From Giardia intestinalis (Eukaryota): 64,000 bases of DNA. The stretch lies in the NCBI GenBank assembly GCA_000002435.2, contig CM018793.1; one strand, 5' to 3'. Shown piece after piece: positions 840 to 43,860 of the stretch (the stretch's first letter is position 1; each line of letters starts with the position of its first letter). Under the pieces are notes generated by a model. It saw only the letters and a program-made list of their open reading frames with translations. It made no database searches and was not told the origin of the DNA. The translations under genes and the position numbers were made by a program.

Positions 840-1286
840 CTACATGCCGGTCTTCTTGTTGAATCTCCTCTTTTGAATTAAGCAAGATACACAAAAGGTG
901 AGCGCGTAAGCAAAAGCCAGAAGCCCGTTGCAGCGCTTGCTTCGCAGCTCTACGAGCGCCAAGACCAGACTGACGCCAGCCACAAGGTTGAGGAGGCCCG
1001 AAACATAGCCCTCCGTGGAATACTGGGTCATCATTCCGCTTGCGATGAACACTTGCTTCGTCTCATTAACTCCAACCCTCTCTATCCCATAGGGTGGAGG
1101 CGTATTGATGAGATTGTAAATTACGCCAGATGTGGAAAACGTATAGGCTATACAGAGCAGAATGTAAAAGTAGAGAGGCCTGATGTGTCTGTAGACACGT
1201 GCCACCAAATTATCACAAAAACTCCAAGCCTTATCAATACGTTTTCGTAGAGTGGTTGTCTGACTCCTCTGAATCCGTTTGGCCAT
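840..1286 (-). CDS. Small 3-TM membrane protein resembling oligosaccharyltransferase subunit OSTC/DC2
   Basis: The 148-aa ORF has ATG at 1284-1286 (complement), TAG stop at 840-842 and an upstream TTTTAAAA initiator. Three predicted TM helices. Segments SGVIYNLINTPPPYG and QYSTEGYVSGLLNLVAGVSLVLALVELRS align with my recollection of human OSTC (GGIIYDVIVEPPSVG ... [26 protein letters not shown]). The assignment rests on memory of that sequence, not on a search. Confidence 0.5.
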   Translation of the reverse strand: MAKRIQRSQTTTLRKRIDKAWSFCDNLVARVYRHIRPLYFYILLCIAYTFSTSGVIYNLINTPPPYGIERVGVNETKQVFIASGMMTQYSTEGYVSGLLNLVAGVSLVLALVELRSKRCNGLLAFAYALTFCVSCLIQKRRFNKKTGM

Positions 1287-1445
1287 TTTTAAAAGGGAGT
1301 AGGGGCATGTTTCAAGGACGAAAAGATAGGTTTACTGAGGGCTGGGGCACCACTCTAATCTGCCACAGATGAAGCAGAGTGCAAGTGTTGAGCTCTGCAG
1401 TCCGACCAAGAGGCTGACAGAGAGGGTCACAGTTATGGATAGAGC

Positions 1446-4400
1446 CTACATTATATCTTTGTAATCAAAGCCGTCGTTTTCCCACCGTGGCCCTAATCGA
1501 AGTCCATTTGCACGTATAGAATCCTCTATTATGTCCAGAAATTCCCCAAGATCGTTCTGAATGCATCCATCAGATTCATAGGCACCCACAATCTGCATTT
1601 CATGAGTCATACGTGATCCTGAGCTACGTTTGTCTGTGTGATTGGCTTTCCCCCACACTGTGTTTATGTACAAGGCACACAGTTCTTCTGTCTCTGCGAC
1701 TATGTCATTGTATCGCTCTATCTCTAGCATCTTGATTGCCCGAATACGCCTCTTCATACAGTCCTTTGAAAGCATTCGCAGTTTTTCCTGGGACATAAGA
1801 AGCTCATCCAGTACCTCGTTCTCTAGGCTCCTACCTTGTCTCAAGAGAAACTTAATGCACCGCACCTCTTCAAGCTCATGAATAGCTGAAAAGCCTGACT
1901 CGTAGGCACTGGCTATGCAATACGGTGTCTGGAAACAGCGATTGTCTACGTCCCCAATCAGAAGCGGATTAAGAAGAGGGTAATGTTCCCACAGGATTGT
2001 CAAGAACATCTCTATTTCTACTATGCGGGCATCTAGTGACGTATTCGTGCCCCACATATCTATTCCTTTAAGAACAGCCACCTGTGATGGATACTTGCTT
2101 ATGTTAGACTGTTGTATGACGTTCTTGACTAAGGACGAGTTCTTCACCGCAGAGAGAATGTGTGGGTCACTCTTCCGTGATCTCCGCATGACGGAAACAG
2201 CATCTTCTACTGTGCTGCTTTCAATACGGACCTGTAGGCTATGGCTCGGTAGTGGATGTGGACCAAACCGAGCTTTTGGTGCAGTGCTTTTTCGCTCCCA
2301 CAGCTGCGGAGAGACGTTAGACTTGATGTGCCTGTACGTATCGTTCACCGGTATGCTTGAAACTATATAGCCCCAAACTGCTTCGTCGATATATCTGTAC
2401 GATTCGTGTCTCGACCGAGATATTTGGCTCTTGTTGGCGTTTGCAAGTAGGTCTAAATACTCACGTATTAGCAAGCATACCTCCTGCACTGCATGAAGGA
2501 CAAGTTTAGAAAAGATGCTATCTCTACTGACATCATCACCAAGATCGGGGGGAGTATAGTAGGGAGACATAGAGAAGATAGACTGGTGCAAAGTCTGTGG
2601 TTGGAAAGATGATTGGCTGGGGAGAAGAACAGCATGGAACGAGCCACAGGCACATTTGGATGAAAGGGTCTGTACGCTTGATTGACGCTTGACCACAGAG
2701 GTGCCCGAAGTTGACCCTGTAGCATCAGGTTTTGCAGGATCTTCGTTTAACATGTTATTGTACCGGGCATCTGCCTTAGTAAGCTCCTCTTTGAAAAGCT
2801 TCTCTGCTGGTGTTCTAATGAGCTCAGAGGGATCCATGGGGATTATATCTAGCGTGCGCTCTTCTAAGGACCAAAGGGGGTTCCACAATGACCTAATTCT
2901 CTCTGGAGTGATATATCTGCATTTAGGAATGCTTATGGACCAGTAGTCTGTCAGAAACGTGTTTGTTGAATCTTCTGCTGACGGATTGGGCGGGTTTTCT
3001 GCATCAGGAATTAGTGGGGTGTTTTTCACCGTGATGTCTGTGCATAGAGTGTATGGAACGGTTGACCTCAATTCCCGCTGAGCGATATCAAAGATTGGTG
3101 CGGCACCACGCTCCTCTAAAAGTGTGTAGCGTTGGAATAGAGGGGCATGAATACTAGACAGATGTGCGGGGTCGTTTTCTCTCTCGTCTATTAGTGCCGA
3201 GATGCTGTCCAGGGTGGGAATAGGAAGAAGCCTTGACTCCCCCAGCTTTACCGGCCGGTGAAGAATGCGTTGATAGTTCTCCATCACCTTGTCCACAGAC
3301 TCATACGAGGGATGCTTTTTGGTACTTGCTATGTCACTGTCAGGACTTATCTTCCCTAATAGCACATGTTTGGCTATTTCCAATCCACGGCACCGGGCAA
3401 GTCGAATTATCTCCTTGCTCTTCCAGCGATCAAGCTTGTCGAGCGATCCATAGGACAGCAGAGATGGATGAATAGCAAGCATAAGATTTAGTAAAGGCCG
3501 TATACCGTGATGATAGTTGGGTAATGTAATAAGCTGCAGCTCGGAGGGCGTGAATGGGGAATCCGAGCACCTAAGGGGTGAACACAATCTGTTACTAATA
3601 GCACTTATTGATCGCCGCTCTTCATCAGTTCTTTGCACGCCACAACGCCGCTCTTGCAAATAATAGTACTTTGCAGTCTCCTCATCCTTTTCATCGAGAG
3701 TCTGGAAGTCAATGTCATCGTAGAGGATAGCCGCTTCAATGGACAGCATCAGGTCTTCATCAAAATCAAAGACACAGCCGTCCACAATCTCAAACAGAGC
3801 AGCATGATTTTCTATTACAAAGTCATAGATGTCATCCCAAATAGTGAAGGGAACGAGGGGATCATCGTCTTCCTGCACCGTCTTAATCAATTGATCATAA
3901 GCGCGAAGGGAGGAGAAGTCCTCTGCTTGTGGAAGCTTAGCTACAAGTAAAATAGATTTATCCGAGTCACAGCCTAATAAATGATAGAGCTGCTTTGTCA
4001 TATTCTCCTGGTCGTAGGTAGATGTCACCAGGAGATCGAGAACAGTTGTTGGAAGGATCTGTGACGAGGGGAGCTGTTTTGCAAAGGCAGAGAATTTCCT
4101 ATTATACAGTTTCGTCATTAGGATTGACGTTGCCAAATTAATAGACAACTGCCCGCTGGTTAGCATGCTAGAAATAAGGGAGTTTTGTGGGTCATATGTG
4201 TAGACTGCTTCGTTCAGATGCTTGGCCGTCAAGAGATATGATACCCTGTTAGAAACAAGACACGATGATGCCAAGTGTTGGACTTTTTCTTCAGGTTCTG
4301 TATTTTTTGCCAGTTTTGCTGCAGCACGGGGTAGAGAGTGTCCAAATTGAGCAGATGGCTCCTTCTGTGGCTCGTCGCTGTACACGCCTGTTGCAGTTTT

Positions 4401-7400
4401 TATAGCTTCAAGCTCTTGACTATGGATGCCATATGCTTCATAGTTAGTTAGGTCTAAGGTGGAGGAAGAATTCATGCTATTGGTACCTGGAGCATTCAGT
4501 GGTGCAGCTGCCAACGTAGCTATGCCCGTGAGGCTGTTCAGTGACATATTGCTTATTAAGCTTGTGCTAGCGGGGTAGAGGCAGCGCAACCCTTGACTGA
4601 CACCTGATATATTCGCTACAGTCCCATAATACTCATTGATGTCGAGTTGCTCCGACGATGGGGCAACCCACCCTCCAATCCTGTGGACGTCAAAGATCGA
4701 CTTCACGAAGAAGTACCCATACAGTGGCATATACACTATGGCTGGAACAAAGCATTTAGGATGGCAGAGCATGTCGTGAATTGTAGCGAGCAAGGACGTG
4801 TTAAAAAACGATCTCAGGCGTTGATTGGCGATTATTTGTTCCAGAACTCCGACAAAACTCGTGGAGCTGCTGAGTCCCTTTATACCCTCTGAAAGGAGCT
4901 GATAAAGCTGAAAGTTAATGTAGAATGTTAGAGATTGCTGCTTCCACGCATTTGCAATCTTCCAAGATATGTGTGGATTGGTACTGAGCACTTCGTTGTT
5001 CAGGCCAGGTACACTGGGTTGTGAGTGGGCACCCAACGAGGACATGCTGGTAGAAGCCTTCAGAGTAGCTACATCTAGAGGGCTAATGGAGATCCCAAGA
5101 GAAGAACAGTACTCGACACACTTCTTCTCATGGTCAAGGATGGTTAGATCCACAGAGCCAACTGAATGGGGAACCATGTATACACGTGAGTACTGAAGCC
5201 GTAGGTTCAATGGACTAAAGATTGGCAGGCGAAAAGGGCTGTTCATAATCAGAGCCAGGATGCACAAGAAGCTGACGGCCTTGGGAAATAGCTCCTCATC
5301 ATCAAAGCGAACAATATCAACAGACAGCCTTTGGATAGCAGACCCTAAAAGAACTGCATCAACGGTTTTCATGTATAGAGCAACGTTGGTGATGGCTGTC
5401 TCTACCTCACTTCGAGTCCCCGGGACGCTGATAAGAAAAGGTGATCTTTCCCTGTACTCTAAAAAGGAAACAACATTGGGAGGAAACAGCGAATCATAGT
5501 CACTGAATACTGGAGTAAACAACCTTGAGGAGTGGGAAAGATCAATGCTTGTGACAGTTGGAGGCATGCAGAGGCCCAATGCAGTAGTTAGGAAGCCTGT
5601 TGGACTTGTGTATTCAGCTCTTTGAAAAGAGGATGTCCAAGGGAGAGCCTTATCCACGTCGCCTCTACTATCTTTCTGTTCCGAATTAAGATCTTGTGCA
5701 CCGCTCTCAATCAATAGCCACGAGATATCGTTTAGTACATCAGACAGAAAGTCTAGGGGATCATTAAGTGTGCATGTGCAACTCTCGAAGAAGCCATGGG
5801 CGCATCTCTGTTCTCTTGGCGTAGAGCTATCGTAGGCTTGAGAGCCCATGGTCGGGCAAAGTATTCTATCCCTAACTAAGATAGATTGCATGTAAGGAAG
5901 CGAAAGGCCCCATATAAGGTAGATGGCTGGAATCCCTCCTCCTATTTCATCGTGAAGCACTAAGTCCCGTGCACCCAAAACTAACTTTGGAGCCTGCATA
6001 GGAGAGGGGATGAAGAGGGAGGTGAGAGATACTGATAGATCAATAAGAGAACCCACCAGAGAAGATACTGGCTGGGGTCCATGGTTCCACGAGGAGAGTA
6101 GAACACCTGGCAGGGTTTGGCTCATTGGGCCAGTAGCACCTGGGGTAGCACGCAGGTCCAGAAATGTGTGTGAAGGGTCTGGCGTAGCAGTTGATAGAGT
6201 CAAGCCAATATGCTCTCTAAATAGAGGGTATACCAATTCAATAGGCGCTGTATCAATATGGAGAAGCTCAGCATTGGGCAAGGAAAATATGAACAGCCCG
6301 CTTTCCGATATACCTTTGAAAAATGTAGCTGCACGTTCTTTCAGCGCTGGGTCCTTGCGTAGCTTAGAAAGTCCGAGTGAAAAGAGCGATGCAGCAGATC
6401 TATCCTCCATGACTTCACTCTTGCACCGAGAGTGAAGAACGAAGTGAAGCCCTGCTGTGTCTGGAGATCCAGTGATGGTATATGTGCTTAAATCTAAAAT
6501 AGAATTCAGTGACGCGTGTCCTATGGCAAGAGACCCAGTGCGAAAGTCAGGGGCAAGCGAAGCGAGGACAGCCTCGCCGTAATCCTTACAATACGCTTGC
6601 ATTATCCCAATCTTCTTATTGAGAATGCTGGTCAATACAGTACGTGTAAAGCTGGAACAAGACGGTGCTGCAAGGCGCTCAGAGGTATCTGTGAATTCCC
6701 TCTCATGGCCTAGTGAGGCAGAGCTGCTGTCGCTACTCTCATCAGCCTGGACAGTAGGCCTTTGAGATCCCCGCGCAGACACCTTAACGGTTGAGCTAGA
6801 TCGAAGTGTTACAGGATCGATGTCTACTTGAGGTGTTACGATAGAGCTAGACTTTAGAAGCGAAGACCCAAGAGTAGACAGGCCTAGAGACTCGTTAGAG
6901 CCGGCAGACAGCTCCATGTCATTTCCACGGAGACAGGCCTCAAGGGGCTCATCGAGAACTACCTTAAAAACATATTCTGATACGAACGGCTTTGTAGGGG
7001 ATGCTGCTTTGGTTTTGGAGTCGTGTCGGTGAGTTTTGCGATGAACTGAGTTTCCATGCTCAGCAACCTTGGATGCGGCATAATACGGTTCCAGCTCCTT
7101 GACTGTATTTAGCTCATCGAGGAATGATACTGGTAAAGGAATCTCCGGATCTATTACGATGTTACCCAAGATAATTTTTGTTATGAGCACTTGAGGCTTC
7201 GGTGAGTCCTTTTGGTCTTGAAGTGTGGACTTAATAAGCATCTTATCACTAAATGGAATCGGCAGTGTCTTTTTTGCATTGCTATCAGAATCTGTTAGTG
7301 TGAAAGTTAGAGTACTAGTAGATTGCTTAGGGCTTACTGGCAAGCTTTTTGCTTGATCAGATAGACGGAGTGGGGATGTATGAAGATGCGTTGGTTGGAC

Positions 7401-8666
7401 GAACTGTAGCTCTGAAAACACAACGCACCCCTGGTCAGTTGTGCTTCTCAAAGGTATAAGGATGTTGACACACTGGAGATAGGAGAGATCGTCCACTCCC
7501 TTGATGATGTCCATAGTTTTAATGTTGCTGGGCAGATCTGCAAATGATCCCATAGAGCTTGTGGGGGTGCCCATGGACATAGCCTGTGGAGAAATTGTTA
7601 AGAGCTGGCGTCTCCGCCCGCGCTTACCGGCACCAACTCCACCACTGAGATTAACCTTAATATTCTTCTCTTGAATGTTATAGATATCTGCTTTAAATCC
7701 CTGCTGGCTGGTTCTCTGAAGCATCTCCTGAAGAGCATCCTCATTAAAAACTGCCGAGAGGGTATAACGCTGTCCTTTTATATTCTTGTTGAGCAGCCCC
7801 TTGCTAGAAAATTCTGGAAACAGTCCCAATAGCTTCATGCTGGCATTGAGGGGTCCGTGAACTTCTAGCTTGACAGAGGAAAGCTCGGAGCAGGTATAAA
7901 AGCGCAAAAGCTGCGGGGAAAGAAGGGAGTTAGATAGTAACAATTCGAGATAGATCTGTCTGATGCGGTTCGGGTGGAATAGAGAGTGAGGGCTGTAATC
8001 CCCCGGCAACATCAAGTGAGTGGGGAAAATGAGGGTTTCTATAGGAGATAGAGTCAGCGGTGCTTCCCTTGAAAGATTTTGTGCCGTGTATTTGCGGACT
8101 GCTGGGGATAACGAAGAGTATGCAGCCTGCTTGTTCACGCGGGCCGATAGAGAGATGGATTCAGAGTAAGTGTAAGGAATGTTCAAGTCTATCCCAAACA
8201 TAATAGAGAACAAATTGAAGTTACCCCTGACCATGCGGGTAACAATCTCCATGGCCAGGATGAAGTGGTTTGGAGCAGTGTCAGCTTTTAACGCTGACTC
8301 TCCATAACCGATAATAGCAGCAGATGGCCTAGGAAACTGGGCATCTGCCAGCTCTTGGGGGGTGAGCTGCATATGAAGGAGTCGCTGAATATAGCTTAAC
8401 AAAGTAGAATTCTCCCTCATATAGTCGTAGAGTAATATGTCTGACCGTATAGCGGAAATATTGGTAGTCGATGTTATGTGATGCCCCACGGGCGCCTTTG
8501 TGTTATCTGGAGTGCCGTGCAGAGGAGAGGTTGTAGCAAAGTCAGACAAAGGAATAAAGGCACAAGACAACCCGTTCTTCTCTAGCTCTGCTTCTTCTCC
8601 CCTATTCAGCTTAACAATGACAATGCCCTGCATCATAACAATGAAGCGGCGGGAACGTCTTCCCAT
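1446..8666 (-). CDS. Very large hypothetical protein (2406 aa)
   Basis: Uninterrupted 7.2-kb ORF, with ATG at 8664-8666 (complement) after an A-rich leader and TAG at 1446-1448. No P-loop, kinase, motor or other motif I can name. Only small out-of-frame ORFs overlap it. Confidence 0.8.
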   Translation of the reverse strand: MGRRSRRFIVMMQGIVIVKLNRGEEAELEKNGLSCAFIPLSDFATTSPLHGTPDNTKAPVGHHITSTTNISAIRSDILLYDYMRENSTLLSYIQRLLHMQLTPQELADAQFPRPSAAIIGYGESALKADTAPNHFILAMEIVTRMVRGNFNLFSIMFGIDLNIPYTYSESISLSARVNKQAAYSSLSPAVRKYTAQNLSREAPLTLSPIETLIFPTHLMLPGDYSPHSLFHPNRIRQIYLELLLSNSLLSPQLLRFYTCSELSSVKLEVHGPLNASMKLLGLFPEFSSKGLLNKNIKGQRYTLSAVFNEDALQEMLQRTSQQGFKADIYNIQEKNIKVNLSGGVGAGKRGRRRQLLTISPQAMSMGTPTSSMGSFADLPSNIKTMDIIKGVDDLSYLQCVNILIPLRSTTDQGCVVFSELQFVQPTHLHTSPLRLSDQAKSLPVSPKQSTSTLTFTLTDSDSNAKKTLPIPFSDKMLIKSTLQDQKDSPKPQVLITKIILGNIVIDPEIPLPVSFLDELNTVKELEPYYAASKVAEHGNSVHRKTHRHDSKTKAASPTKPFVSEYVFKVVLDEPLEACLRGNDMELSAGSNESLGLSTLGSSLLKSSSIVTPQVDIDPVTLRSSSTVKVSARGSQRPTVQADESSDSSSASLGHEREFTDTSERLAAPSCSSFTRTVLTSILNKKIGIMQAYCKDYGEAVLASLAPDFRTGSLAIGHASLNSILDLSTYTITGSPDTAGLHFVLHSRCKSEVMEDRSAASLFSLGLSKLRKDPALKERAATFFKGISESGLFIFSLPNAELLHIDTAPIELVYPLFREHIGLTLSTATPDPSHTFLDLRATPGATGPMSQTLPGVLLSSWNHGPQPVSSLVGSLIDLSVSLTSLFIPSPMQAPKLVLGARDLVLHDEIGGGIPAIYLIWGLSLPYMQSILVRDRILCPTMGSQAYDSSTPREQRCAHGFFESCTCTLNDPLDFLSDVLNDISWLLIESGAQDLNSEQKDSRGDVDKALPWTSSFQRAEYTSPTGFLTTALGLCMPPTVTSIDLSHSSRLFTPVFSDYDSLFPPNVVSFLEYRERSPFLISVPGTRSEVETAITNVALYMKTVDAVLLGSAIQRLSVDIVRFDDEELFPKAVSFLCILALIMNSPFRLPIFSPLNLRLQYSRVYMVPHSVGSVDLTILDHEKKCVEYCSSLGISISPLDVATLKASTSMSSLGAHSQPSVPGLNNEVLSTNPHISWKIANAWKQQSLTFYINFQLYQLLSEGIKGLSSSTSFVGVLEQIIANQRLRSFFNTSLLATIHDMLCHPKCFVPAIVYMPLYGYFFVKSIFDVHRIGGWVAPSSEQLDINEYYGTVANISGVSQGLRCLYPASTSLISNMSLNSLTGIATLAAAPLNAPGTNSMNSSSTLDLTNYEAYGIHSQELEAIKTATGVYSDEPQKEPSAQFGHSLPRAAAKLAKNTEPEEKVQHLASSCLVSNRVSYLLTAKHLNEAVYTYDPQNSLISSMLTSGQLSINLATSILMTKLYNRKFSAFAKQLPSSQILPTTVLDLLVTSTYDQENMTKQLYHLLGCDSDKSILLVAKLPQAEDFSSLRAYDQLIKTVQEDDDPLVPFTIWDDIYDFVIENHAALFEIVDGCVFDFDEDLMLSIEAAILYDDIDFQTLDEKDEETAKYYYLQERRCGVQRTDEERRSISAISNRLCSPLRCSDSPFTPSELQLITLPNYHHGIRPLLNLMLAIHPSLLSYGSLDKLDRWKSKEIIRLARCRGLEIAKHVLLGKISPDSDIASTKKHPSYESVDKVMENYQRILHRPVKLGESRLLPIPTLDSISALIDERENDPAHLSSIHAPLFQRYTLLEERGAAPIFDIAQRELRSTVPYTLCTDITVKNTPLIPDAENPPNPSAEDSTNTFLTDYWSISIPKCRYITPERIRSLWNPLWSLEERTLDIIPMDPSELIRTPAEKLFKEELTKADARYNNMLNEDPAKPDATGSTSGTSVVKRQSSVQTLSSKCACGSFHAVLLPSQSSFQPQTLHQSIFSMSPYYTPPDLGDDVSRDSIFSKLVLHAVQEVCLLIREYLDLLANANKSQISRSRHESYRYIDEAVWGYIVSSIPVNDTYRHIKSNVSPQLWERKSTAPKARFGPHPLPSHSLQVRIESSTVEDAVSVMRRSRKSDPHILSAVKNSSLVKNVIQQSNISKYPSQVAVLKGIDMWGTNTSLDARIVEIEMFLTILWEHYPLLNPLLIGDVDNRCFQTPYCIASAYESGFSAIHELEEVRCIKFLLRQGRSLENEVLDELLMSQEKLRMLSKDCMKRRIRAIKMLEIERYNDIVAETEELCALYINTVWGKANHTDKRSSGSRMTHEMQIVGAYESDGCIQNDLGEFLDIIEDSIRANGLRLGPRWENDGFDYKDIM

Positions 8667-8958
8667 GAGCCTTTTTTTGGAGGTCTGACTTAAGAACGCA
8701 AGCTGATGTGTGAGCTAGGTATCCTGTGCAGAGATCTCTCCACAGAAAAGGTTGAATAAATGTGGCTGCAGTTTAGCTGGCACGTGGTGGGAGACAGGCG
8801 CCGGTCATCCTGCAGCATATGTGCTCCGGTGGGAGAGCAAAGCCGTGTCCAGCATCTCCAGTTCATCGTCCAGCGCAGCCAGAACGGCCACAGACGTAGA
8901 ATAGCTGGCGACGCGGTCCGTCTTTGCCACTATGATGGGAGCTTTAAATAAATATAAT

Positions 8959-11900
8959 ATGAACACAAAGACATCGTGGAGGCAGGAGCTTTGCAACTTG
9001 AGCCGCTCAGACAGGCCTGAGCCTTTCTTCCAGCGTGCGAAGGCTATTGTCCACATCCTGCAGACCAATCCCGAGGAGCGGCAGCAAATCTTGGAAAGCA
9101 TTATCTTAGAGATGGAGGAGGGGGTCTTGCTTGCATGTGCAGGATATTCGTCTGTCCTGGGGTACCTGCATCGTCGCGTGGGGTACATGAGCGAGTACAC
9201 AGCGGACAATATTATTTTCACAGTCACAGCCTATTCGGAGAAACACAAAGGCTCTGGAGATGAGCAGGCGCAGATTATCGCGTGTGCTTGCTTCATTTCA
9301 ATCATGTCTGCTCTCAGTTCCGTGAATGCTGAGTCTTCGGAGAAGTGTCTCTGCGCATATCAGACATCGTACGTGAGACTCTTCAGCCCCCTAGCTCGGG
9401 CACACTGCCAGGCGAGTCTTGCCCTCTCGCTCGTCATTATTGCAGGATCGCATCCCATCCGCACACTCTCAGTGGCTCAAGACCTGCTAATCAGACCATC
9501 TGATGGAGCTTCAAGCAAGGGAGTCGTTAACTATCTGCTCTTTCTCCTTGCTACGTTTGGAGAGCAGGACATAGAGCTTGCTGGCCCATACGTCGGCCCA
9601 TTTTCCCTTCCAATTGTGAGCTCTGACGATATTAAGGCAAAGATAGTACCGGTCAGCCTACTCAAGCAGCTTGACACGACCCTCATCTCTGAAGCCGCAA
9701 TATGGATATACTCACGTTCACAAGACATTTATCCTGGCAGAGTGCCCTCTGCCCAAGGGAAAAAAACTAAAGAATCAGAGGAAGACATACCCGCAAAGGA
9801 CATGCAGCTGCATCCTGTCTGGAAATACTTGTTTGCTTTCTATGCTGCTCTTTATAAGGCACACGGAGAAAATGGTGCAGAAGTGGCCGTGGCCATTCAA
9901 AGCCATCTTGTCCGTTCTCTTCACACACCCATCAAGGACTACAGTCAAGATATGTGCTATATTCTTGCTTCAATTTTCGAAGTAGCAGATGGAATTCCAG
10001 AGTACGATAATTTATTACCTAGACTACTTTGTGCAGGTGGTTTTCTGAAGACCTATATTCTTCCCAACAGCAACAAACATATATGCTCCAAGCTTATTCG
10101 TTATGTCTCCAAGTGGTGCTATACGGACATACGTCGTGGTCGTGAATTTGCCGTCAGTCTTAACTTAGAGCCGTTAGAAATCTATGGACTTATTGGTACG
10201 GAGTTTGGAAAACTTGTTCTCAAGCGTGCGCCAGAAGATGTTACTATTGGAATGCTGACTCATATGGCATCACAATTGCAGCGCTGCCTAACAACGCCTC
10301 TTTCACCGGAAAAGCTGGACGCTTTTCTGGTGGACTTCTCCTTTAGTATGAAAGCCCTTGCCCCCTCTTTTAAATCTTTTGCAAACGAGCTCGTGACCAT
10401 CTTTTTCAAATTCTTTTCGCTGTTCTATTATCAACTCCGTGATCACAGTCTCGTTAAGCATCCCATCAACACGGAGGAGTCTTACGCAATTCTGCGTAGA
10501 GGAAGACAAAAGTTTCTTATGACCTTGGAACCCTTGGCCACAGCTGATGCATTTGGTCAACTGGCTGCCCTTGTACTCCCATCTTTGTCTGCTAGTTACA
10601 GGTCGGCTGTTACCGGGGCAAAAGATAGCACGAGCATCAGACTGCATTATCCTGTTTTATTACAGACAGGCACTACGGCGCTGAGCCACCTTGACGGATT
10701 GCAGGTGGTTGATAGCGACCTTTCCTCCGTCTTTGCTAGGCATTATGATGCAGTGGCCATAGCAGCTCTTTGCTCACTGTTGATGGGCCTTGATGACGAG
10801 CACGTCTTATCGCAATCGACTACTGTGCAGAGCGTTTTAACGTCGGTTCATAGAGTCGCACAGTTAGCGGCTAAAGGCCCCCAAGAAGTTGACTTGGATG
10901 CCATACAAGTATCCCTACTTGGGCTTAATCATCACTTTCACGTTAGTAATAGTAACTTCGGCCGTGTGGCCTCGGTGGCCATAATGAAGCAGATTGCTAT
11001 TGACTTAACCGACAGAGCATTTAAATCCCTGCTATCAGCTATTCGCATTGCTCCACCTGGTCAATCTACAGAAAGCGAGGATGAAAGTGAGGCTGATCTC
11101 ATGGAGTTTCCTCAACCAAAGACAGACAATGAAACAGTGCAGGACGTCAATATTTACAGCTTAAAGGGTCTGGAGCAGGATGGAAGCCAACCACCCCAAA
11201 CGGATGTTAGTTCAGAGGGGTCCCGGGATGAGGTCTCGGCGATAAATGGTGTTGACGATCAGTACGATAAGATCCTTGTAGATACCTTCAAGGCGCACAG
11301 AGCTGCGCAAACAGAGAGCACACACGTGTTCATGAGGGCAGCGCGGACGTTGTATCCCCTCTCAATAGCTATGGAGGCCATTCCAGATCGCCCTATGAAT
11401 TGGGACGCCCTAGAGGCCTTATACATCCTCGTTTCAAATCCCCTTGCTGCAACAAGGGACGAGTACGGGTTTCAACACCCAGCCGTCAAGCAGACACCAG
11501 CCAACAAGCAGTACATTGAAATGATGGTACACCGGGCATCTGAGCTCATCGGATCCTACACGCAGAACAAGATCGTGCGCTCTAAGCTCTTCGTGAGTGA
11601 CTTATTTATATGCTATGAGATGGATACCCCCGAGAAATATGAGTTAAGATTCAGATGGAGTGACCTGACAAACACATTGATTCTGGCCGTTGTCAACTCA
11701 AAGCACAAAAGTCGCAAGCAAGCAGAAGATCTACTTGCCTTTATTGTTTGCCTTTTAAGCACAGCTAAGCGAGAATCCTTTGCAGAGATTGCCGAGGATC
11801 TACACGAACAATATGGCACTCCGATCGAAGATGCAATTGAATGCTGCGCAAAGCTGTGCAGAAGCACTGCAGATAAGTTAGTTGAGGCCACAATAAAGAA

Positions 11901-12360
11901 GATGGTGCGAAATCGGGATCTGGGAACCTCGTCGCACATTATGAAGCAGTTCATAGATGCTGGCTGCTACTCCACAATTGCAGTTATCACAGACCAGTTT
12001 TCTAGCGATGCATTTGTGTCTCTCTTTGTGGCTGAAGAATTCGTACTGCTTGTCAGCGACGCATTATCAGATTGGTGCAATGGTGTACGGCTCAAGAGGA
12101 TTGAGGGGGATATATACGTTAAGGACCTGATCAAGAAACTCTTAAAGAGTATGTTTGAGTGGTTGGCACTGAAAACTAATGAGGCTGGGCGTTCCCAGCA
12201 GTTGACTAAACTAAAGTATGCAGCGAACCGTGTCAAGAAGATCGTTAAAATGTGCGAAGGAATTGTAAGTTTAGAAGATGACTTAAAAGCTTTAGATGAT
12301 ACGCGTCAAAAGATCATCACAGGCAGAGAGGCGATGAGGGCAAAGGCGATAAAGAGATGA
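8959..12360 (+). CDS. Large hypothetical protein (1133 aa from the preferred start; the track ORF begins at 8932)
   Basis: The ORF is open from 8932 to the TGA at 12358-12360. I prefer the in-frame ATG at 8959 (MNTKTSW...) because it is directly preceded by CTTTAAATAAATATAAT, a typical A/T-rich initiator. The sequence upstream of 8932 is GC-rich. No recognisable domain. Confidence 0.7.
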   Translation: MNTKTSWRQELCNLSRSDRPEPFFQRAKAIVHILQTNPEERQQILESIILEMEEGVLLACAGYSSVLGYLHRRVGYMSEYTADNIIFTVTAYSEKHKGSGDEQAQIIACACFISIMSALSSVNAESSEKCLCAYQTSYVRLFSPLARAHCQASLALSLVIIAGSHPIRTLSVAQDLLIRPSDGASSKGVVNYLLFLLATFGEQDIELAGPYVGPFSLPIVSSDDIKAKIVPVSLLKQLDTTLISEAAIWIYSRSQDIYPGRVPSAQGKKTKESEEDIPAKDMQLHPVWKYLFAFYAALYKAHGENGAEVAVAIQSHLVRSLHTPIKDYSQDMCYILASIFEVADGIPEYDNLLPRLLCAGGFLKTYILPNSNKHICSKLIRYVSKWCYTDIRRGREFAVSLNLEPLEIYGLIGTEFGKLVLKRAPEDVTIGMLTHMASQLQRCLTTPLSPEKLDAFLVDFSFSMKALAPSFKSFANELVTIFFKFFSLFYYQLRDHSLVKHPINTEESYAILRRGRQKFLMTLEPLATADAFGQLAALVLPSLSASYRSAVTGAKDSTSIRLHYPVLLQTGTTALSHLDGLQVVDSDLSSVFARHYDAVAIAALCSLLMGLDDEHVLSQSTTVQSVLTSVHRVAQLAAKGPQEVDLDAIQVSLLGLNHHFHVSNSNFGRVASVAIMKQIAIDLTDRAFKSLLSAIRIAPPGQSTESEDESEADLMEFPQPKTDNETVQDVNIYSLKGLEQDGSQPPQTDVSSEGSRDEVSAINGVDDQYDKILVDTFKAHRAAQTESTHVFMRAARTLYPLSIAMEAIPDRPMNWDALEALYILVSNPLAATRDEYGFQHPAVKQTPANKQYIEMMVHRASELIGSYTQNKIVRSKLFVSDLFICYEMDTPEKYELRFRWSDLTNTLILAVVNSKHKSRKQAEDLLAFIVCLLSTAKRESFAEIAEDLHEQYGTPIEDAIECCAKLCRSTADKLVEATIKKMVRNRDLGTSSHIMKQFIDAGCYSTIAVITDQFSSDAFVSLFVAEEFVLLVSDALSDWCNGVRLKRIEGDIYVKDLIKKLLKSMFEWLALKTNEAGRSQQLTKLKYAANRVKKIVKMCEGIVSLEDDLKALDDTRQKIITGREAMRAKAIKR

Positions 12361-12395: not shown

Positions 12396-12866
12396 TTACC
12401 GTAGTGAATTTAAGTTGCGCTGCTGAATTCTTAAGACCAAGAGAATATCTTTTGACATGAGGGTGACTCGGTTGGCGTGGTAGGTTGCTAGCAAAGCTGT
12501 GGAGAATAGTTCAACTATGTATTCCTCTGTTGCAGATTGGAGAGCCTCCATGGCCATCCCTTGGAAGCGGTATGGACCCTTGGATCCATCTCTTTGCGCA
12601 ATTTGTTCAACAAGCTCCTGGACCAGTCTGGCGAATGGGAGCTTCTGTATTAGTGTATCTACATTGTGCTGATAGTGATATATTTCTCGCTCCATGTGTG
12701 ACACTCGTGCGGGCCGTCGTGGGACAGAGGAGAAAGGATCAGAAGAAAGCTTGCTGCGAGATTGGCGTGCATTTACGACCACCCCAGGTATCATGTTCCG
12801 TCCTGAGATCTCTCGTCTACGATGCCCAGTGTTTCGTGCCACTTGTGACCGTGAGCCTCCGCTCAT
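12396..12866 (-). CDS. Divergent histone H3 variant (cenH3-like)
   Basis: The 156-aa protein has a C-terminal histone fold matching H3: EREIYHYQHNVDTLIQKLPFARLVQEL...RFQGMAMEALQSATEEYIVELFSTALLATYHANRVTLMSKDILLVLRI versus canonical [26 protein letters not shown]...[48 protein letters not shown]. The N-terminal tail is long and non-canonical (no ARTKQTARKS), and loop 1 is slightly longer (QRDGSKGPYRFQ), as in centromeric H3 variants. Confidence 0.75.
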   Translation of the reverse strand: MSGGSRSQVARNTGHRRREISGRNMIPGVVVNARQSRSKLSSDPFSSVPRRPARVSHMEREIYHYQHNVDTLIQKLPFARLVQELVEQIAQRDGSKGPYRFQGMAMEALQSATEEYIVELFSTALLATYHANRVTLMSKDILLVLRIQQRNLNSLR

Positions 12867-12925
12867 CTTCTGTTTTTTCTCGAATTGAAAATTTACTCTT
12901 CACGCGCAGCTAGATCTCTTTGTAC

Positions 12926-15445
12926 ATGTACTCCACTCCTATCCCCACCTTCGCTAACAAGCCTGGGACAGTTCCCAGGAAAAAGGACGGTGTGACCACA
13001 GGCCCCCGTGTGAAGCAAGCTCTCCCCCCTATTAACCAAGTCCACGACCCCGAAAAGAAGACTCAAACCTTTTCACGTTCAGCAATTAGTGCGCTCAGCG
13101 CTGCCTCCCAGGAGGTCTTCAGTGAATCGAGTCAGCACAGTCAGGTTTATGCGGCCGAGATGCGGAACATTAAAGAGCGCCTTGCTAACCGAGCTCAAGC
13201 AGATGACGACTCCATTCAGCTGGCCATTCGTGCAGCAGACAACGATACTAGAAAGGCACTGGAGGCAGCAGGCTTCTTTCGAGATGAAGCAGCCAGCGCA
13301 CGCCAGCAGAGTGAGATGCTTATGCAGCGCGTGTTGACGCTTGAGAAGGACAACGATGCATTATCTAAACGTCTTGATAAGAGTAGCAGCATGCTGAATT
13401 CAGTCGCACTCGAATTGTTCTCTGATATTTCTACTCAGACCATCGATAAAGACATGCTTCTTACTCAATATTCACGCATAAAGTCGCTTGTAGCAGATTG
13501 CAATCACATATCTTCGGAAATAGGTTTCCCATCAACGTCGGTTCCAGAAATCGTGGAGCTTCTTGATTCTCAAATGCTTCAGGGCATGAGTGGGAACACA
13601 CTTGTTCTTGAAGGAGTGCCGCGATCTATTCAGTCCATTGCCCTGTCATTGACTCTTGCTGAATGCCAAATCCTACGCTCTCTCAATTTCCTTCTCAAGC
13701 ACCTGATCTCAGAGAATCAAAAGGTGGCCGCTCAAGACAGTTCGAACGCACAAATGAGCACTGAGACGGCAGGAGCCAAACTGATTAAAAGTATCTCGAA
13801 GGAGATGCCTATAGGAGCGAGCCACCAAAGTGACCCAGCACTCGATGACATCATTCGGCAAGCGACACTATCTTCTCCACTAATGAGCTCAGAGCAGCTT
13901 CAGCATCCCAACGATGTCTTCCGCATAGAGTTCCAGGGATCCGGCGTTGCCGTCGCAAAGGCCCTTGTTGAGCTCCGACGAAGAACTGCGTCGTTTTTAC
14001 TCCGAGAGGCCAGGTTTGATCACGATCCACTTCTCAAGCGTGCTGCTACTGATAATACAACCTTGCGCACGTTGGTTGCAGCTTTGCAGAACGAACTGTA
14101 CTTTACCCGTCAAGCGCTTGAAATGGTCAAGGGATTGGGGCTCAGTTCTGATATCTTTCCCATTGAGAGCCAAGCTAGCACTGATAACTTAGCCCTTAAC
14201 GACGGTGGTCAGGATACTCAGTCCGGCTTGAGTAGTACTGGACGCAGCGACACTAGCGCTTCCACTCCGGTCCCTGGGACTCACCTCTCACTGCCAAACT
14301 TCTCTTCTACTGATATTATTAAGTTGGCGGAGAACGCTTTAACCAGCGCTGTGGACCTTGAGCTCTTGCCATCGGAGCTGACCAAGAAGTTAGAGGATAT
14401 AGTGGAAAACGCACTAGCCACGTCTGATGATGTAGATAAGGCCAAGGAGACTCAGCAATACAGTTCTGAGGAAAGGGTTTCGGTAACAGAGATTCAGAGA
14501 CTTATTATGCTTCGTGAAAAGGCACTACAGCATATAGACACTGCAGCCCAAGAGTTTATCGACCAACTGGCCACTTCTGATGTAATGTCCGCCATTGCAA
14601 CTATAGAAGAGGGCTCATCTGAAATGCAGGGTATTTTTGGTGTAGCTACATATGATGAGCCTTCTTCCCTTCTATCCTTTGCTAAAGATGCAAACGAAAG
14701 TCAAGCCAAATTGTTAGCACGCTTTTCAAAGGAGCAGGACAATTTCATTGGCGACATCAGACAAATAAGTATTAATATTGGCGAAGGCCATACTGAGAAA
14801 TACAATAGAGATGGATCGGGCTTTCTAGATGTCCTCTATAGACACGCCACTCTCTTGGAGCACACTTTAGAATTGCATAAAATAGTCGTTGCACGTAACA
14901 TGGCGTTAGTCAGGCTTCAGGCCATCATCCTTTGTCTTCAGAAGAATAATGAGAAGAACATTCGAGAAGTAGCCTATCTGGCCGCTGTTCGCAACGGTAT
15001 TTTAAAGGGCTATGTAGAACAATCTCGAAAAATGGCTGTTCTGCGCCAGGAAAATGATTATTTCAGGCTCCAAATTGCCCGATCGTCCTCTCGGGATATC
15101 AATTCACAGGAAAAGAGAAAACATGACGCCCTCTCAGCGGCCATAACTGATGCAGCCATAACTGGCGATCCTCAGTACTGTTCTTCCCTGGCCAGCTGTG
15201 TCGAGTCCTTAACGCAGAGCTATCGAACAAAGATTGCAGAATGCAAAGCAGAAATGTGTGCATTTGGAAATACACTTACTGCTACCTCAGACAAGATCAT
15301 GCAAATCCTGGAAGAGTATCGCTTGCTGATAGAAACAAGGGCCTGCAAACTAGTCCAAACGGACAGGAAGAGACGTACCTTCGACACAGCAGTCGCCACC
15401 GAGGATCCAGAGGCAGCCCCTGCTGCAGTGCCGAAGAAGAAGTGA
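12926..15445 (+). CDS. Hypothetical protein (~840 aa), possibly coiled-coil rich
   Basis: The track ORF starts at a TTG (12920); the first ATG is at 12926. It is open to the TGA at 15443-15445. Transcribed divergently from the H3-variant gene across a 59-bp spacer. No recognisable domain. Confidence 0.7.
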   Translation: MYSTPIPTFANKPGTVPRKKDGVTTGPRVKQALPPINQVHDPEKKTQTFSRSAISALSAASQEVFSESSQHSQVYAAEMRNIKERLANRAQADDDSIQLAIRAADNDTRKALEAAGFFRDEAASARQQSEMLMQRVLTLEKDNDALSKRLDKSSSMLNSVALELFSDISTQTIDKDMLLTQYSRIKSLVADCNHISSEIGFPSTSVPEIVELLDSQMLQGMSGNTLVLEGVPRSIQSIALSLTLAECQILRSLNFLLKHLISENQKVAAQDSSNAQMSTETAGAKLIKSISKEMPIGASHQSDPALDDIIRQATLSSPLMSSEQLQHPNDVFRIEFQGSGVAVAKALVELRRRTASFLLREARFDHDPLLKRAATDNTTLRTLVAALQNELYFTRQALEMVKGLGLSSDIFPIESQASTDNLALNDGGQDTQSGLSSTGRSDTSASTPVPGTHLSLPNFSSTDIIKLAENALTSAVDLELLPSELTKKLEDIVENALATSDDVDKAKETQQYSSEERVSVTEIQRLIMLREKALQHIDTAAQEFIDQLATSDVMSAIATIEEGSSEMQGIFGVATYDEPSSLLSFAKDANESQAKLLARFSKEQDNFIGDIRQISINIGEGHTEKYNRDGSGFLDVLYRHATLLEHTLELHKIVVARNMALVRLQAIILCLQKNNEKNIREVAYLAAVRNGILKGYVEQSRKMAVLRQENDYFRLQIARSSSRDINSQEKRKHDALSAAITDAAITGDPQYCSSLASCVESLTQSYRTKIAECKAEMCAFGNTLTATSDKIMQILEEYRLLIETRACKLVQTDRKRRTFDTAVATEDPEAAPAAVPKKK

Positions 15446-16447: not shown

Positions 16448-19400
16448 TCAAAGCAAAAGCAAGCGAACGAGCCACGCCATGAGTCCGACAAGAAGGATGA
16501 GCCCCCAGAGCCTCTTACTGGCTAGTACTCTGAACGTAAGAGTAAACCCTTGCTCAAGGCGACGTTCCAATCGGGGGCTTTTGTGCACTAAATATAGGAC
16601 ATGGACTATTAGCGAAAGAAAGTAATTGATCCACATCGCCAGTGCATCTAAAGCAATGACCAAAACTGCAAATTCATCGGGCCGTACTGGCTGGATTATT
16701 GTGGACACATGCCCCGTTGACTCACGAACAGCTGCCAGCATACTGTGGCTCATATCCCCTTCTTTGTCTTCTAGAAGTCCAGAATTGACAAGGATCTTTG
16801 TTGCGCTGTTAGACATGCAGTATGCTGCATACTTCAAAGCATTGGATGATCCACTGATTTTCCTCAATCGCTTGTACTCCGGGCTGGAGACAATGTCCAT
16901 CGGCCGGTCCCTGGGCCCCCTATTAGCAACCCTCCGCGGTGATACCCCGTGCTTGGTTGACGAGATAACGCCTGCAAATCCCCTCGTCATATCTGCATAG
17001 AGTAGATTGTAAATATGTGAAATGCTATACACATTCTTCAGTATAGGAACCCCTCTCTGCCACCCAGCCAATCGTAGCAGAAGCCTTTCCCAAGGAAAGA
17101 CAGCAGACTGCAGTGAAAGAACACTGTTCATGGTAACATTGCTTGAGTGGTTTAATCGAGACAGATATGACTTCACCCTGCTGCTGTAGTGTGTGAACTG
17201 GTCCATGTATTCCTTGAAGAAAGCCCTGTCTTGGTCGTGTGGAAGATGCTCTTCCCCGCTGTGTGCCAGTGCCATATCCAGGAGTCCTATGTAGCCCGTG
17301 CATAACGGGTATGCTTTCTGTGCTGCTATGTCCGTGAGCATTCCAGCAGAGTCTATCGATAGATAGCAACGAGTGCCTTGTCGAGAATCAAACCGCAGAC
17401 CAGAAATCTTGTGCTGCTTGGACATAGCAAAGTATACATGGTGGATGTCCTCCAAAAGAGAGTGAGATGCTTCAGAAACAGACCTCTTGAAGTACTCAGT
17501 ACTGAGTAGACACTTTGTCGCTGGCGTAGGGTACAATTGCGAGGCTATAGTTGCAACGCGAGAACCTGCTGAACCCTTCTCAATCGCAGGTCTCCATAGC
17601 ACCGGCTCACATGCAGCGTATACCATAAGCGCCCTGGCACGCGCCGTAAAAAGCAGGGCATCAACCTCTATGTCCAGCGGTGTGATCTTCGAAGCAATAG
17701 TGCCAAGTGAAGACAGGATCGGTTCTACAAATGAATGGGAAAGCCAGCGGGTCACAGAGCTTAAGGCAGCCAAATGCTGAATAGGTTTGCAATAATTCTG
17801 ACAGTATAAGCTTCTTAAGTTAAACAACGATAGAGGTGACCCATAACGCAGCGCTCCTTTATCTATTAGGCTGGTAGTCTCTGAGAGAATCTTGATGTGG
17901 ACTGAGGCCACATGGCGGAGCCACTCAACAAGAAGTGTGGTGTAAAAGGGTGCCCGGATTGCTATGGCTGCTCTGAGTCTCCGTTCGTCTTCTATGGACA
18001 AGCGCAACTCTGCAGACTCATCGGTTAAATATGTTTCAGTATCAGAAGACAGCTTGGAAGGGTCCAAGCAGAGAAGCTCCCCGTATATTCGCGACATTAA
18101 TAAGTATAGGTAAACCTTATTAACTACTGGCTCTCCTTGGAATAGCGAGCGAAGGAAGGAGAAGAATATAGGGAGAACACGTGTCTCAACGATTTCTGAG
18201 AAGGCCGGCGCATAGCGACGAAGGAAGCTCTTTCCTGTAGCAGCCTCTAGCTTATTGGACACCCCATTAGTTCTTACGAAATAGCTCAGAATTGCTTCAC
18301 TGCCATTGCGCATAACATACAGGTAGTTAGATTTTTGGAGCATGGCGTCGTCTGGTGTGTAAATAGACTTGCGGCCCCCGGCTACCAGGGAGGGATCAAC
18401 AGTATGTGAGGGAGGACACTCTGCTTGCCAATCAGCAAGGATTGCATGCCTTGTCGATTCCATGATATTGCTAATTGTGTTTAGAGCCCCGTAGTTGAGA
18501 GATGCGGCAGGAGAGACAACATAGCGAGCGAACATATATGCAAGGTCAAGTATGTTTGTGAGGAAGCAAGGCCTATCGGTGACAGGTCTCACAGTGCAGT
18601 CGTAAGCCAGGGTACGGTAGTGGCTGGACCCCAAAGCACGGGTATGAAGGGCCCGCTCCTCCGCTGTTGCATCTGGGGAAACCTCCCTAGTCTGGCAGAA
18701 ATCCTTTAGGGCCTCTAGTGGCACGGAGATCTGCTCAGCCGTACTGATGGGGATGTTTCGAGCAAACCAACAATCGCATGCCAGAGAGATGAATAGGTCG
18801 CCGACTGTTCGTGGAAACGTAGATACTGAAAAGGGTGAAAAGGAGATTGTACAGGAGCGTTGCATTGAGACATCATCTGCCCGCTGGACGTCTTCCATCG
18901 CAAGAGGTTTGTACAGAATACTGTCCTGCTTGCGGAGTGCCTGCAAGTATTCGAGAATAAGCTTGTTGTATGGTGTTGTCCTTATCTTGTCCGTAGCATT
19001 GTCTTCCTTGGAGCTCACTCTGCAGTTGATACCTGCCGAGCAAATCGTAACTATTGCATACTCTAAGGTGTTCAAGACAATGTCTCCATCAGACGACTTA
19101 GTCATTTTATAGTGATAATAGCGTGGTAGCAGGATAGAATTTATATCGACAAGCTCTGCATAGAGCTGTGATATGGCGCTTAAGGGAACCTTGTATGAGG
19201 TAATGGACCGCAGAGACCGTGTGTAGACTGCTTTGATGAATGGTCCATATGGCCCAAAAAAGAATACTGCGCTTCGTTCCAGTGCTGCCGGACAAGAAGT
19301 GACCAAAAACAAAGAGCCTTGCTTGACAAAGAACTGTTGTAGTAGAGACTGTATTAGAGTGTCGCAGGCTGCACTCGATACAAAGGAATCGCTAGAAAGG

Positions 19401-19456
19401 TGCTCACTCGCTGTGTATAGTTGATTAATCAGCTTGTGCACCATGGAGCGACTCAT
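16448..19456 (-). CDS. Hypothetical protein (1002 aa)
   Basis: Long uninterrupted ORF with ATG at 19454-19456 (complement). No recognisable motif. Confidence 0.75.
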   Translation of the reverse strand: MSRSMVHKLINQLYTASEHLSSDSFVSSAACDTLIQSLLQQFFVKQGSLFLVTSCPAALERSAVFFFGPYGPFIKAVYTRSLRSITSYKVPLSAISQLYAELVDINSILLPRYYHYKMTKSSDGDIVLNTLEYAIVTICSAGINCRVSSKEDNATDKIRTTPYNKLILEYLQALRKQDSILYKPLAMEDVQRADDVSMQRSCTISFSPFSVSTFPRTVGDLFISLACDCWFARNIPISTAEQISVPLEALKDFCQTREVSPDATAEERALHTRALGSSHYRTLAYDCTVRPVTDRPCFLTNILDLAYMFARYVVSPAASLNYGALNTISNIMESTRHAILADWQAECPPSHTVDPSLVAGGRKSIYTPDDAMLQKSNYLYVMRNGSEAILSYFVRTNGVSNKLEAATGKSFLRRYAPAFSEIVETRVLPIFFSFLRSLFQGEPVVNKVYLYLLMSRIYGELLCLDPSKLSSDTETYLTDESAELRLSIEDERRLRAAIAIRAPFYTTLLVEWLRHVASVHIKILSETTSLIDKGALRYGSPLSLFNLRSLYCQNYCKPIQHLAALSSVTRWLSHSFVEPILSSLGTIASKITPLDIEVDALLFTARARALMVYAACEPVLWRPAIEKGSAGSRVATIASQLYPTPATKCLLSTEYFKRSVSEASHSLLEDIHHVYFAMSKQHKISGLRFDSRQGTRCYLSIDSAGMLTDIAAQKAYPLCTGYIGLLDMALAHSGEEHLPHDQDRAFFKEYMDQFTHYSSRVKSYLSRLNHSSNVTMNSVLSLQSAVFPWERLLLRLAGWQRGVPILKNVYSISHIYNLLYADMTRGFAGVISSTKHGVSPRRVANRGPRDRPMDIVSSPEYKRLRKISGSSNALKYAAYCMSNSATKILVNSGLLEDKEGDMSHSMLAAVRESTGHVSTIIQPVRPDEFAVLVIALDALAMWINYFLSLIVHVLYLVHKSPRLERRLEQGFTLTFRVLASKRLWGLILLVGLMAWLVRLLLL

Positions 19457-22231: not shown

Positions 22232-22238
22232 GTTTACT
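22232..22238 (-). terminator. AGTAAAC polyadenylation-signal-like motif embedding the TAA stop of the karyopherin gene
   Basis: On the minus strand the sequence reads CAAGTAAAC. The TAA stop (complement of 22234-22236) lies inside AGTAAAC. Confidence 0.5.
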
Positions 22239-25221: not shown

Positions 25222-25344
25222 CCCTCCAGTAACACAGTTTATTTCCAACTGTTTCAATAAACTTTGGCAATTAATACTTAGCAAAATAAATTTAAAATGA
25301 GTACTCCCAGGATAAATTGAGGAGCATAGGTGAGATCGCAGGCG

Positions 25345-43815: not shown

Positions 43816-43860
43816 TTTTTGAGAGCAATAAACACATCCTCTCTAGGCTTTAACCAACAT

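Follow-up and report, generated by a model that had tools for sequence, protein, structure and literature searches.

The locus and its gene content

The DNA analysed here (the window) is a stretch of 64,000 nucleotides from Giardia intestinalis assemblage A, with a G+C content of 48%, in which long intron-less open reading frames (ORFs) are densely packed. A complete 148-codon ORF, referred to below as the OSTC-like gene, occupies 840..1286 on the minus strand and runs from an ATG at 1286–1284 to a TAG stop codon at 842–840. The ORF list and the window sequence contain no further in-frame start upstream, so that 148 amino acids is the maximum length of the product in this genome. Abutting the ATG is an AT-rich stretch, TTTTAAAA on the coding strand (1287..1294, minus strand), which we take to resemble the short AT-rich initiator that typically precedes genes of Giardia. 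A spacer of 159 bp separates the OSTC-like gene from the upstream gene for a 2406-amino-acid protein and contains the sequence AGTAAAC, presumably the polyadenylation signal of that neighbour, which it resembles. Opposite-strand ORFs at 1053–1250 and 1199–1372 were considered as alternatives and rejected as short and unsupported.

The predicted protein is identical to a Giardia intestinalis entry in the public databases (XP_037902202.1 / KAE8305017.1 / ESU39771.1; UniRef D3KGD9). Orthologues were found in assemblage E (86% identity) and assemblage B (approximately 82%), together with further Giardia-like sequences at 73% and 61% identity. The gene order (2406-amino-acid gene, OSTC-like gene, gene of approximately 756 amino acids) is the same in P15 (assemblage E) and in one assemblage B genome. 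Comparison of the assemblage A gene with its assemblage E orthologue gave a dN/dS of 0.11, indicating purifying selection; the same ratio against assemblage B is unreliable, since the BAH15c1 sequence has compensating frameshifts. The ORF is a genuine Giardia gene and encodes a conserved small membrane protein of three helices.

The BAH15c1 orthologue itself (P0007; L003:3001-3600, JXTI01000020.1) is annotated as a 199-amino-acid 'WD-repeat family protein'. It is extended at the N-terminus by 51 residues that assemblage A could not encode, and over some 40 central residues its frame departs from that of the assemblage B sequences P0003 and P0011, to be regained at RRFNKKTGM. These features probably reflect a pair of assembly indels and a wrong name.

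Elsewhere in the window lie long ORFs of the lineage-specific kind that is typical of Giardia. The 2406-amino-acid ORF lies at 1446-8666 (minus strand), and no Pfam family is recorded for its P15 orthologue. Five ORFs of 780–1142 amino acids, at 8932-12360 (plus), 12920-15445 (plus), 16448-19456 (minus), 22234-25284 (minus) and 43819-46161 (plus), matched no Pfam family at E ≤ 1e-4. At 12396-12866 (minus) lies a 156-amino-acid histone-fold protein (PF00125, E = 4e-33) with an N-terminal region longer than that of canonical H3, which may be an H3 variant or CenH3. A 404-amino-acid ORF at 34583-35797 (plus) matches signal peptide peptidase (PF04258, E = 2e-40), a protein-processing component of the ER membrane; it lies approximately 33 kb from the OSTC-like gene and there is no reason to link the two.

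Membership of the OST3/OST6–OSTC family

The OSTC-like protein matched PF04756 in Pfam at E = 4e-8 over profile positions 184–275 of 294; its score of 33.5 bits is significant, the gathering score being 27. This family carries the Pfam name OST3_OST6 and includes OSTC, as the human protein, run as a control, also matched it (positions 168–292) and scored only 37.8 bits. The Giardia protein and human OSTC match the same C-terminal part of the profile, and all fornicate homologues tested scored 30–46 bits. In a search of the PDB with the single Giardia sequence, the top two matches were the human and canine OSTC chains 6s7o_H and 6ftg_3 (E = 5.6e-4), in an alignment that pairs PPPYG with PPSVG and QYSTEG with QYIMEG of OSTC. 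With a profile of fornicate sequences the match to OSTC reached E = 1e-16 (64 bits, residues 33–143 of 149), while MagT1 was matched at E = 0.0097 (19 bits) and yeast Ost3/6 gave no match in this PDB sequence search. An unrelated family of small membrane proteins was rejected as a source of the similarity: no other Pfam family was significant, and the only one to come up was DUF4199 (E = 0.16, under its cut-off). By profile score, the 148-amino-acid protein belongs, with significance, to the OST3/OST6–OSTC family. The original prediction had it align with OSTC over its whole length; the similarity is indeed far beyond chance, but it spans residues 33–146 or so, and residues 1–36 lack the N-terminal motif of OSTC.

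Proteins of the Ost3/6 oxidoreductase type combine a signal peptide and a CxxC-containing thioredoxin domain in the lumen with four transmembrane (TM) segments, a set of features that the Giardia ORF does not have. Pfam gave no thioredoxin match in the OSTC-like protein, in which only 36 residues precede TM1. In contrast, an Ost3/6 protein of Heterosigma (P0040) covers PF04756 from position 2 to position 292 and matches Thioredoxin weakly (18.6 bits, under the 23.5-bit cut-off). Without a thioredoxin domain carrying CxxC, an oxidoreductase function is impossible for the Giardia protein.

Predicted architecture

Hydropathy analysis revealed three hydrophobic segments, at approximately residues 37–60, 92–114 and 121–137. 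The AlphaFold2 (AF2) model used here was built from 21 more diverse sequences and had a pLDDT of 73.9, an earlier run with Giardia sequences only (pLDDT 56) having been set aside; it places helices at 37–61, 83–115 and 121–146. The protein begins with a strongly basic segment (residues 1–36; 1179..1286, minus strand) that contains 10 Lys/Arg residues by charge count and is predicted to form a cytosolic helix (residues 2–34 in the AF2 model). TM1 (residues 37–60; 1107..1178, minus) carries the conserved motif S-T-S-G54-V-I-Y57-N. It is followed by a predicted lumenal loop (residues 61–91; 1014..1106, minus), which, by the alignments to human OSTC, the AF2 secondary structure and a sequon scan, holds PPPYG (63–67), an N74-E-T sequon, a predicted beta-hairpin (66–70 with 76–80 in the AF2 model) and the start of QYSTEG (88–93). 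TM2 (residues 92–114; 945..1013, minus), placed by hydropathy, starts with E92-G93, of which E92 is an invariant alignment column and G93 a nearly invariant one. The short loop between TM2 and TM3 (residues 115–120, RSKRCN) is predicted, by hydropathy and charge count, to be cytosolic and basic (3 Lys/Arg), and the same two measures place TM3 directly after it (residues 121–137; 876..926, minus). The C-terminal tail, QKRRFNKKTGM (residues 138–148; 843..875, minus), includes K145, an invariant position of the alignment, and the profile alignment extends to residue 143 of human OSTC in this region.

The 10 basic residues at the N-terminus and the three in the 115–120 loop fit a predicted topology with the N-terminus in the cytosol. 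The three TM helices expected from the original prediction were recovered. The motifs that it had named are also present, as P63-P64-P65-Y66-G67 (PPxxG) and Q88-Y-S-T-E92-G93 (QYxxEG), and align with EPPSVG and QYIMEG of human OSTC. A three-TM layout with a cytosolic N-terminus has been established for DC2 (PMC5674889). At about 150 amino acids, with no signal peptide, no thioredoxin domain, three TM segments and a predicted cytosolic N-terminus, the architecture is that of the OSTC/DC2 type.

A di-lysine ER-retrieval signal in the C-terminal ...NKKTGM was rejected, as the lysines at −4/−5 are not canonical and the tail is predicted to be lumenal. The N-E-T sequon (residues 74–76; window 1059-1067, minus strand) lies in the predicted lumenal loop. 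Assemblages A, E and B and the Giardia-like sequence P0004 have NET or NES at this site, and the 61%-identical P0005 has NEV. The enzyme that the OSTC-like protein is proposed to assist could thus also act on that protein.

Comparison with OSTC/DC2 and with Ost3/Ost6

Mammalian OST-A contains OSTC/DC2 as its STT3A-specific subunit (PDB 6S7O chain H, 6FTG chain 3, 8B6L chain J), which, at 149 amino acids, is nearly the size of the Giardia protein. Both have three TM segments, a predicted cytosolic N-terminus and neither signal peptide nor thioredoxin domain, and they share S-G-x-I-Y-D/N, PPxxG, QYxxEG at the junction of loop and TM2, and a tail lysine (K145 in Giardia, K142 in human). They differ in that identity is only 21–23% or so, the P-x-L-K/R-L-x-x-P segment of OSTC is replaced in Giardia by a basic helix, and the human tail K-L-P-G-Y-L-M-G corresponds to K-K-T-G-M. 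The OSTC partners KCP2 and ribophorin I are unreported for Giardia.

PF04756 is also shared with Ost3p/Ost6p of yeast and MagT1/TUSC3 of mammals (PDB 6C26, 7OCI, 6S7T), of which TM2–4 are homologous to the three Giardia TM segments and occupy the position of DC2 on STT3 (PMC6761772). These proteins have the PPPY form in common with Giardia, but the Giardia protein is without their signal peptide, CxxC thioredoxin domain and first TM segment, and its match to their solved structures is far weaker than that to OSTC.

Relatives across Fornicata

When 1.8 billion representative proteins were searched exhaustively with an HMM built from Giardia sequences only, 40 matches were obtained. The best non-Giardia matches were all short (132–167 amino acids), those named being from Dysnectes brevis, Spironucleus salmonicida, Kipferlia bialata, Chilomastix cuspidata and Carpediemonas membranifera; thioredoxin-bearing Ost3/6 proteins (e.g. 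of Heterosigma and Cyanophora) appeared only further down the list of 40. The direct relatives of the Giardia protein (S. salmonicida XP_067765161.1, K. bialata GIQ86232.1, a C. membranifera protein, and EukProt entries from Dysnectes and Chilomastix) are short PF04756 proteins of 135–167 amino acids with the same three-TM layout and motifs, and matched the Giardia-only profile at E = 1e-13 to 1e-10. The presence of short homologues in these genera indicates that the OSTC-like family is vertically conserved across Fornicata. The free-living fornicate proteins keep the canonical OSTC tail K-M-P-S-Y and score much higher on OSTC than does the Giardia protein; Giardia and the other diplomonads are the diverged end of this fornicate series.

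Four short homologues from metagenome and Logan assemblies (P0026–P0029; 138–147 amino acids) group with Giardia and Spironucleus in a neighbour-joining tree. Their probable sources are diplomonads that have not been sequenced or labelled and that are present in environmental or host-associated datasets.

Placement of the diplomonad proteins

Sequence scores placed the diplomonad and the free-living fornicate proteins differently with respect to OSTC and Ost3/6. The Giardia protein scored 55.8 bits on an OSTC-like HMM and 66.9 bits on an HMM of the C-terminal Ost3/6 region, and in hhalign the diplomonad profile scored 115.7 against OSTC and 123.9 against Ost3/6; the reference sets for both comparisons were drawn from matches of the exhaustive Giardia-profile search, which may bias the comparison. 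Free-living fornicate proteins, on the other hand, scored 83–92 bits on the OSTC HMM and 45–58 bits on the Ost3/6 HMM, and their profile gave hhalign scores of 175.6 and 96.4, respectively. It is this free-living profile that lies closest to the diplomonad clade (hhalign 154, E = 1.5e-26). In the neighbour-joining tree the diplomonads stand beside OSTC and the other fornicates, with deep nodes below 50% bootstrap.

Individual residues point in both directions. In a trimmed alignment, the PPPY that follows TM1 in Giardia is a form common in thioredoxin-type Ost3/6 (PPPY/PPPF), as opposed to the PPS/A-x-G of OSTC, while I-N-x-P-P-x-x-G and Q-Y are OSTC forms, the Ost3/6 equivalents being typically I-I-R-x-P-P and Q-F. 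A Foldseek search with the AF2 model returned human OSTC chains as the four best matches, ahead of Ost6, MagT1 and Ost3. By sequence alone, OSTC and the membrane domain of Ost3/6 proteins with a thioredoxin domain are at about the same distance from the diplomonad proteins. The assignment to OSTC is based on the architecture, the ranking among solved structures and the clearly OSTC-type relatives in free-living fornicates, and the most economical reading is that the Giardia protein is a diverged orthologue of fornicate OSTC. Of the OSTC/DC2 identity originally proposed, the family, the architecture and the best solved-structure match hold, but the sequences of the Giardia clade do not by themselves separate OSTC from Ost3/6.

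Conserved positions and mutagenesis of human DC2

Four positions, G54, Q88, E92 and K145, are invariant in an alignment of the fornicate and OSTC-like sequences, and Y57, P64, G67, Y89 and G93 are nearly so. The conserved positions lie where the lumenal loop starts, where it ends, and in the C-terminal tail. When aligned with human OSTC, the Giardia protein has each of the lumenal-face motifs, as S53-G54-V-I-Y57-N58, P63-P-P-Y-G67 and Q88-Y-S-T-E92-G93. In the tail, K145 aligns with human K142 (F138-M-R-M-K142, followed by L-P-G-Y); F142 lies three residues upstream of K145, likewise in Dysnectes and Kipferlia, and the P-G-Y part is reduced to T-G-M.

The corresponding regions have been mutated in human DC2. 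Function is abolished by three of five lumenal-loop deletions (Δ4, Δ7 and Δ8) and by the tail deletions Δ9 (FMRMK) and Δ11 (PMC5674889). Incorporation into the STT3A complex is decreased at least fivefold by Δ9 and Δ11 and two- to threefold by Δ4, Δ8, M139A and K142A, while Δ7 leaves assembly unimpaired (PMC5674889). Five-residue deletions in the cytosolic N-terminus weaken functional coupling to Sec61 (PMC5674889). Human DC2 is also impaired by tags placed at its C-terminus. The P-x-L-K/R-L-x-x-P motif of this N-terminus is found by alignment in human OSTC and in OSTC-like database proteins, and loosely in Chilomastix and Carpediemonas; it is absent from Giardia and the other diplomonads in the alignment, where a predicted basic helix takes its place, and residues 1–36 of the Giardia protein are not alignable to it.

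Proposed role

We propose that the Giardia protein would pack against STT3 through its lumenal-face motifs and C-terminal tail, on the surface that DC2 occupies in the STT3A complex of mammals and Ost3/6 in that of yeast. The Giardia oligosaccharyltransferase (OST) would then consist of at least two components rather than STT3 alone. Such an STT3-associated role appears reasonably probable to us. If the protein is DC2-like in a further respect, it would also hold STT3 beside the Sec61 channel and so allow sequons to be scanned co-translationally. Animal DC2 works with KCP2 and with a contact between ribophorin I and the ribosome. It ties STT3A to the Sec61 channel. Neither KCP2 nor ribophorin I is in the published Giardia inventories (PMC2064103, PMC4973528). 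Because the N-terminus of the Giardia protein has diverged and these two partners are unreported for Giardia, a Sec61-tethering function is put forward with less confidence than the association with STT3. That Fornicata run a minimal two-component OST, composed of STT3 and an OSTC/DC2-like adaptor that docks on Sec61, is accordingly a tentative proposal, possible rather than probable. No STT3 gene was found within the 64-kb window.

Alternative explanations

Because the product is short and hydrophobic and the single-sequence PDB search gave a modest E-value, the ORF might be a chance one, or its similarity to OSTC a spurious likeness between hydrophobic segments. This explanation has a negligible probability and is effectively refuted: the Pfam score lies beyond the curated cut-off, the profile match to OSTC is strong, no rival family is significant, orthologues in three Giardia assemblages keep both synteny and a low dN/dS, and homologues occur in at least five other fornicate genera. 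The short form could also have arisen by degeneration of Ost3/Ost6, if a fornicate ancestor had independently lost the signal peptide, the thioredoxin domain and the first TM segment and been left with TM2–4; the protein would then still be seated on STT3, as an Ost3/6 membrane anchor without translocon tethering. The diplomonad profile is equidistant from the two groups or marginally nearer to Ost3/6, and the PPPY after TM1, the missing OSTC N-terminal motif and the low bootstrap (< 50%) of the node that unites the short forms are consistent with such an origin. We nevertheless consider it unlikely, since the proteins most closely related to the Giardia clade, those of Dysnectes, Kipferlia, Chilomastix and Carpediemonas, favour OSTC over Ost3/6 by 33–38 bits and carry the OSTC tail K-x-P/A-S/T-Y, the Giardia protein itself has the OSTC forms I-N-x-P-P-x-x-G and Q-Y, and OSTC outranks MagT1, Ost3 and Ost6 among solved structures in both sequence and fold.

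A different question is whether a protein of OSTC type would have been kept in Giardia for a task independent of STT3, as an accessory of Sec61 or the translocon, a general ER membrane factor or a cation (Mg2+) transporter. A role in Mg2+ transport was once proposed for MagT1/TUSC3 and is the origin of 'transporter family' in the database name. With all other non-catalytic OST subunits reported missing in Giardia, the structural context of DC2 is gone, and the N-terminus has diverged; moreover, the need for accessory subunits is not evident in an organism that transfers only GlcNAc2 (PMC2064103). Against this, conservation in the protein is greatest at either end of the lumenal loop and in the C-terminal tail, and incorporation of human DC2 into the STT3A complex depends on the tail and, to a lesser extent, on the loop segments removed in Δ4 and Δ8. 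We know of no STT3-independent function that has been established for any OSTC. Mammalian DC2 is also unstable without STT3A, and it is the catalytic subunit itself that gives the specificity of binding (PMC5674889). An STT3-independent task seems improbable to us.

Implications for the oligosaccharyltransferase of Fornicata

As examples of an OST consisting of STT3 alone, Giardia and the kinetoplastids are the standard ones (PMC2064103; PMC4973528). The G. lamblia and trypanosome genomes were reported to be without genes for non-catalytic OST subunits (Kelleher et al. 2007; PMC2064103), and only Stt3 is given for Giardia and Spironucleus in Table 1 of Lombard 2016 (PMC4973528). The original prediction, made from the sequence, spoke of an STT3-only lineage, and the exact match to Giardia shows that this description of the literature was apt. 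Family membership of the protein is not new, as an automated name is already in the databases: the exact Giardia protein is called 'OST3 / OST6 family, transporter family protein' in RefSeq and UniProt (XP_037902202.1, D3KGD9), and the Spironucleus, Kipferlia and Carpediemonas homologues also bear the family name through automated annotation. A full-text literature search found no mention of an OSTC, DC2 or Ost3 homologue in Giardia or Fornicata. The protein is a member of a known family that was unexpected in this lineage, and not a new kind of system; the practical weight of the finding is limited by the name already assigned and by a proposed function that rests on homology.

An OSTC-type protein across Fornicata means that the subunit inventory for the lineage needs correcting. 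To credit Giardia with STT3 only is probably too strict, and homology suggests that its N-glycosylation or translocon machinery is less minimal than described. DC2 and KCP2 are described as accompanying STT3A in metazoa, multicellular plants and Dictyostelium (PMC5674889); the OSTC type probably has an earlier origin and a wider distribution than this published picture suggests. Giardia offers a very reduced system in which to ask what DC2 does for STT3 without ribophorins, OST48, DAD1 or glycan-dependent quality control. If the two-component OST is true, the 'single-subunit eukaryotic OST' would not be truly single-subunit in Fornicata. On the current view, coupling of glycosylation to translocation of the DC2 type arose with STT3A in metazoa and multicellular plants (PMC5674889); a two-component OST in Fornicata would make this coupling an ancestral eukaryotic feature.
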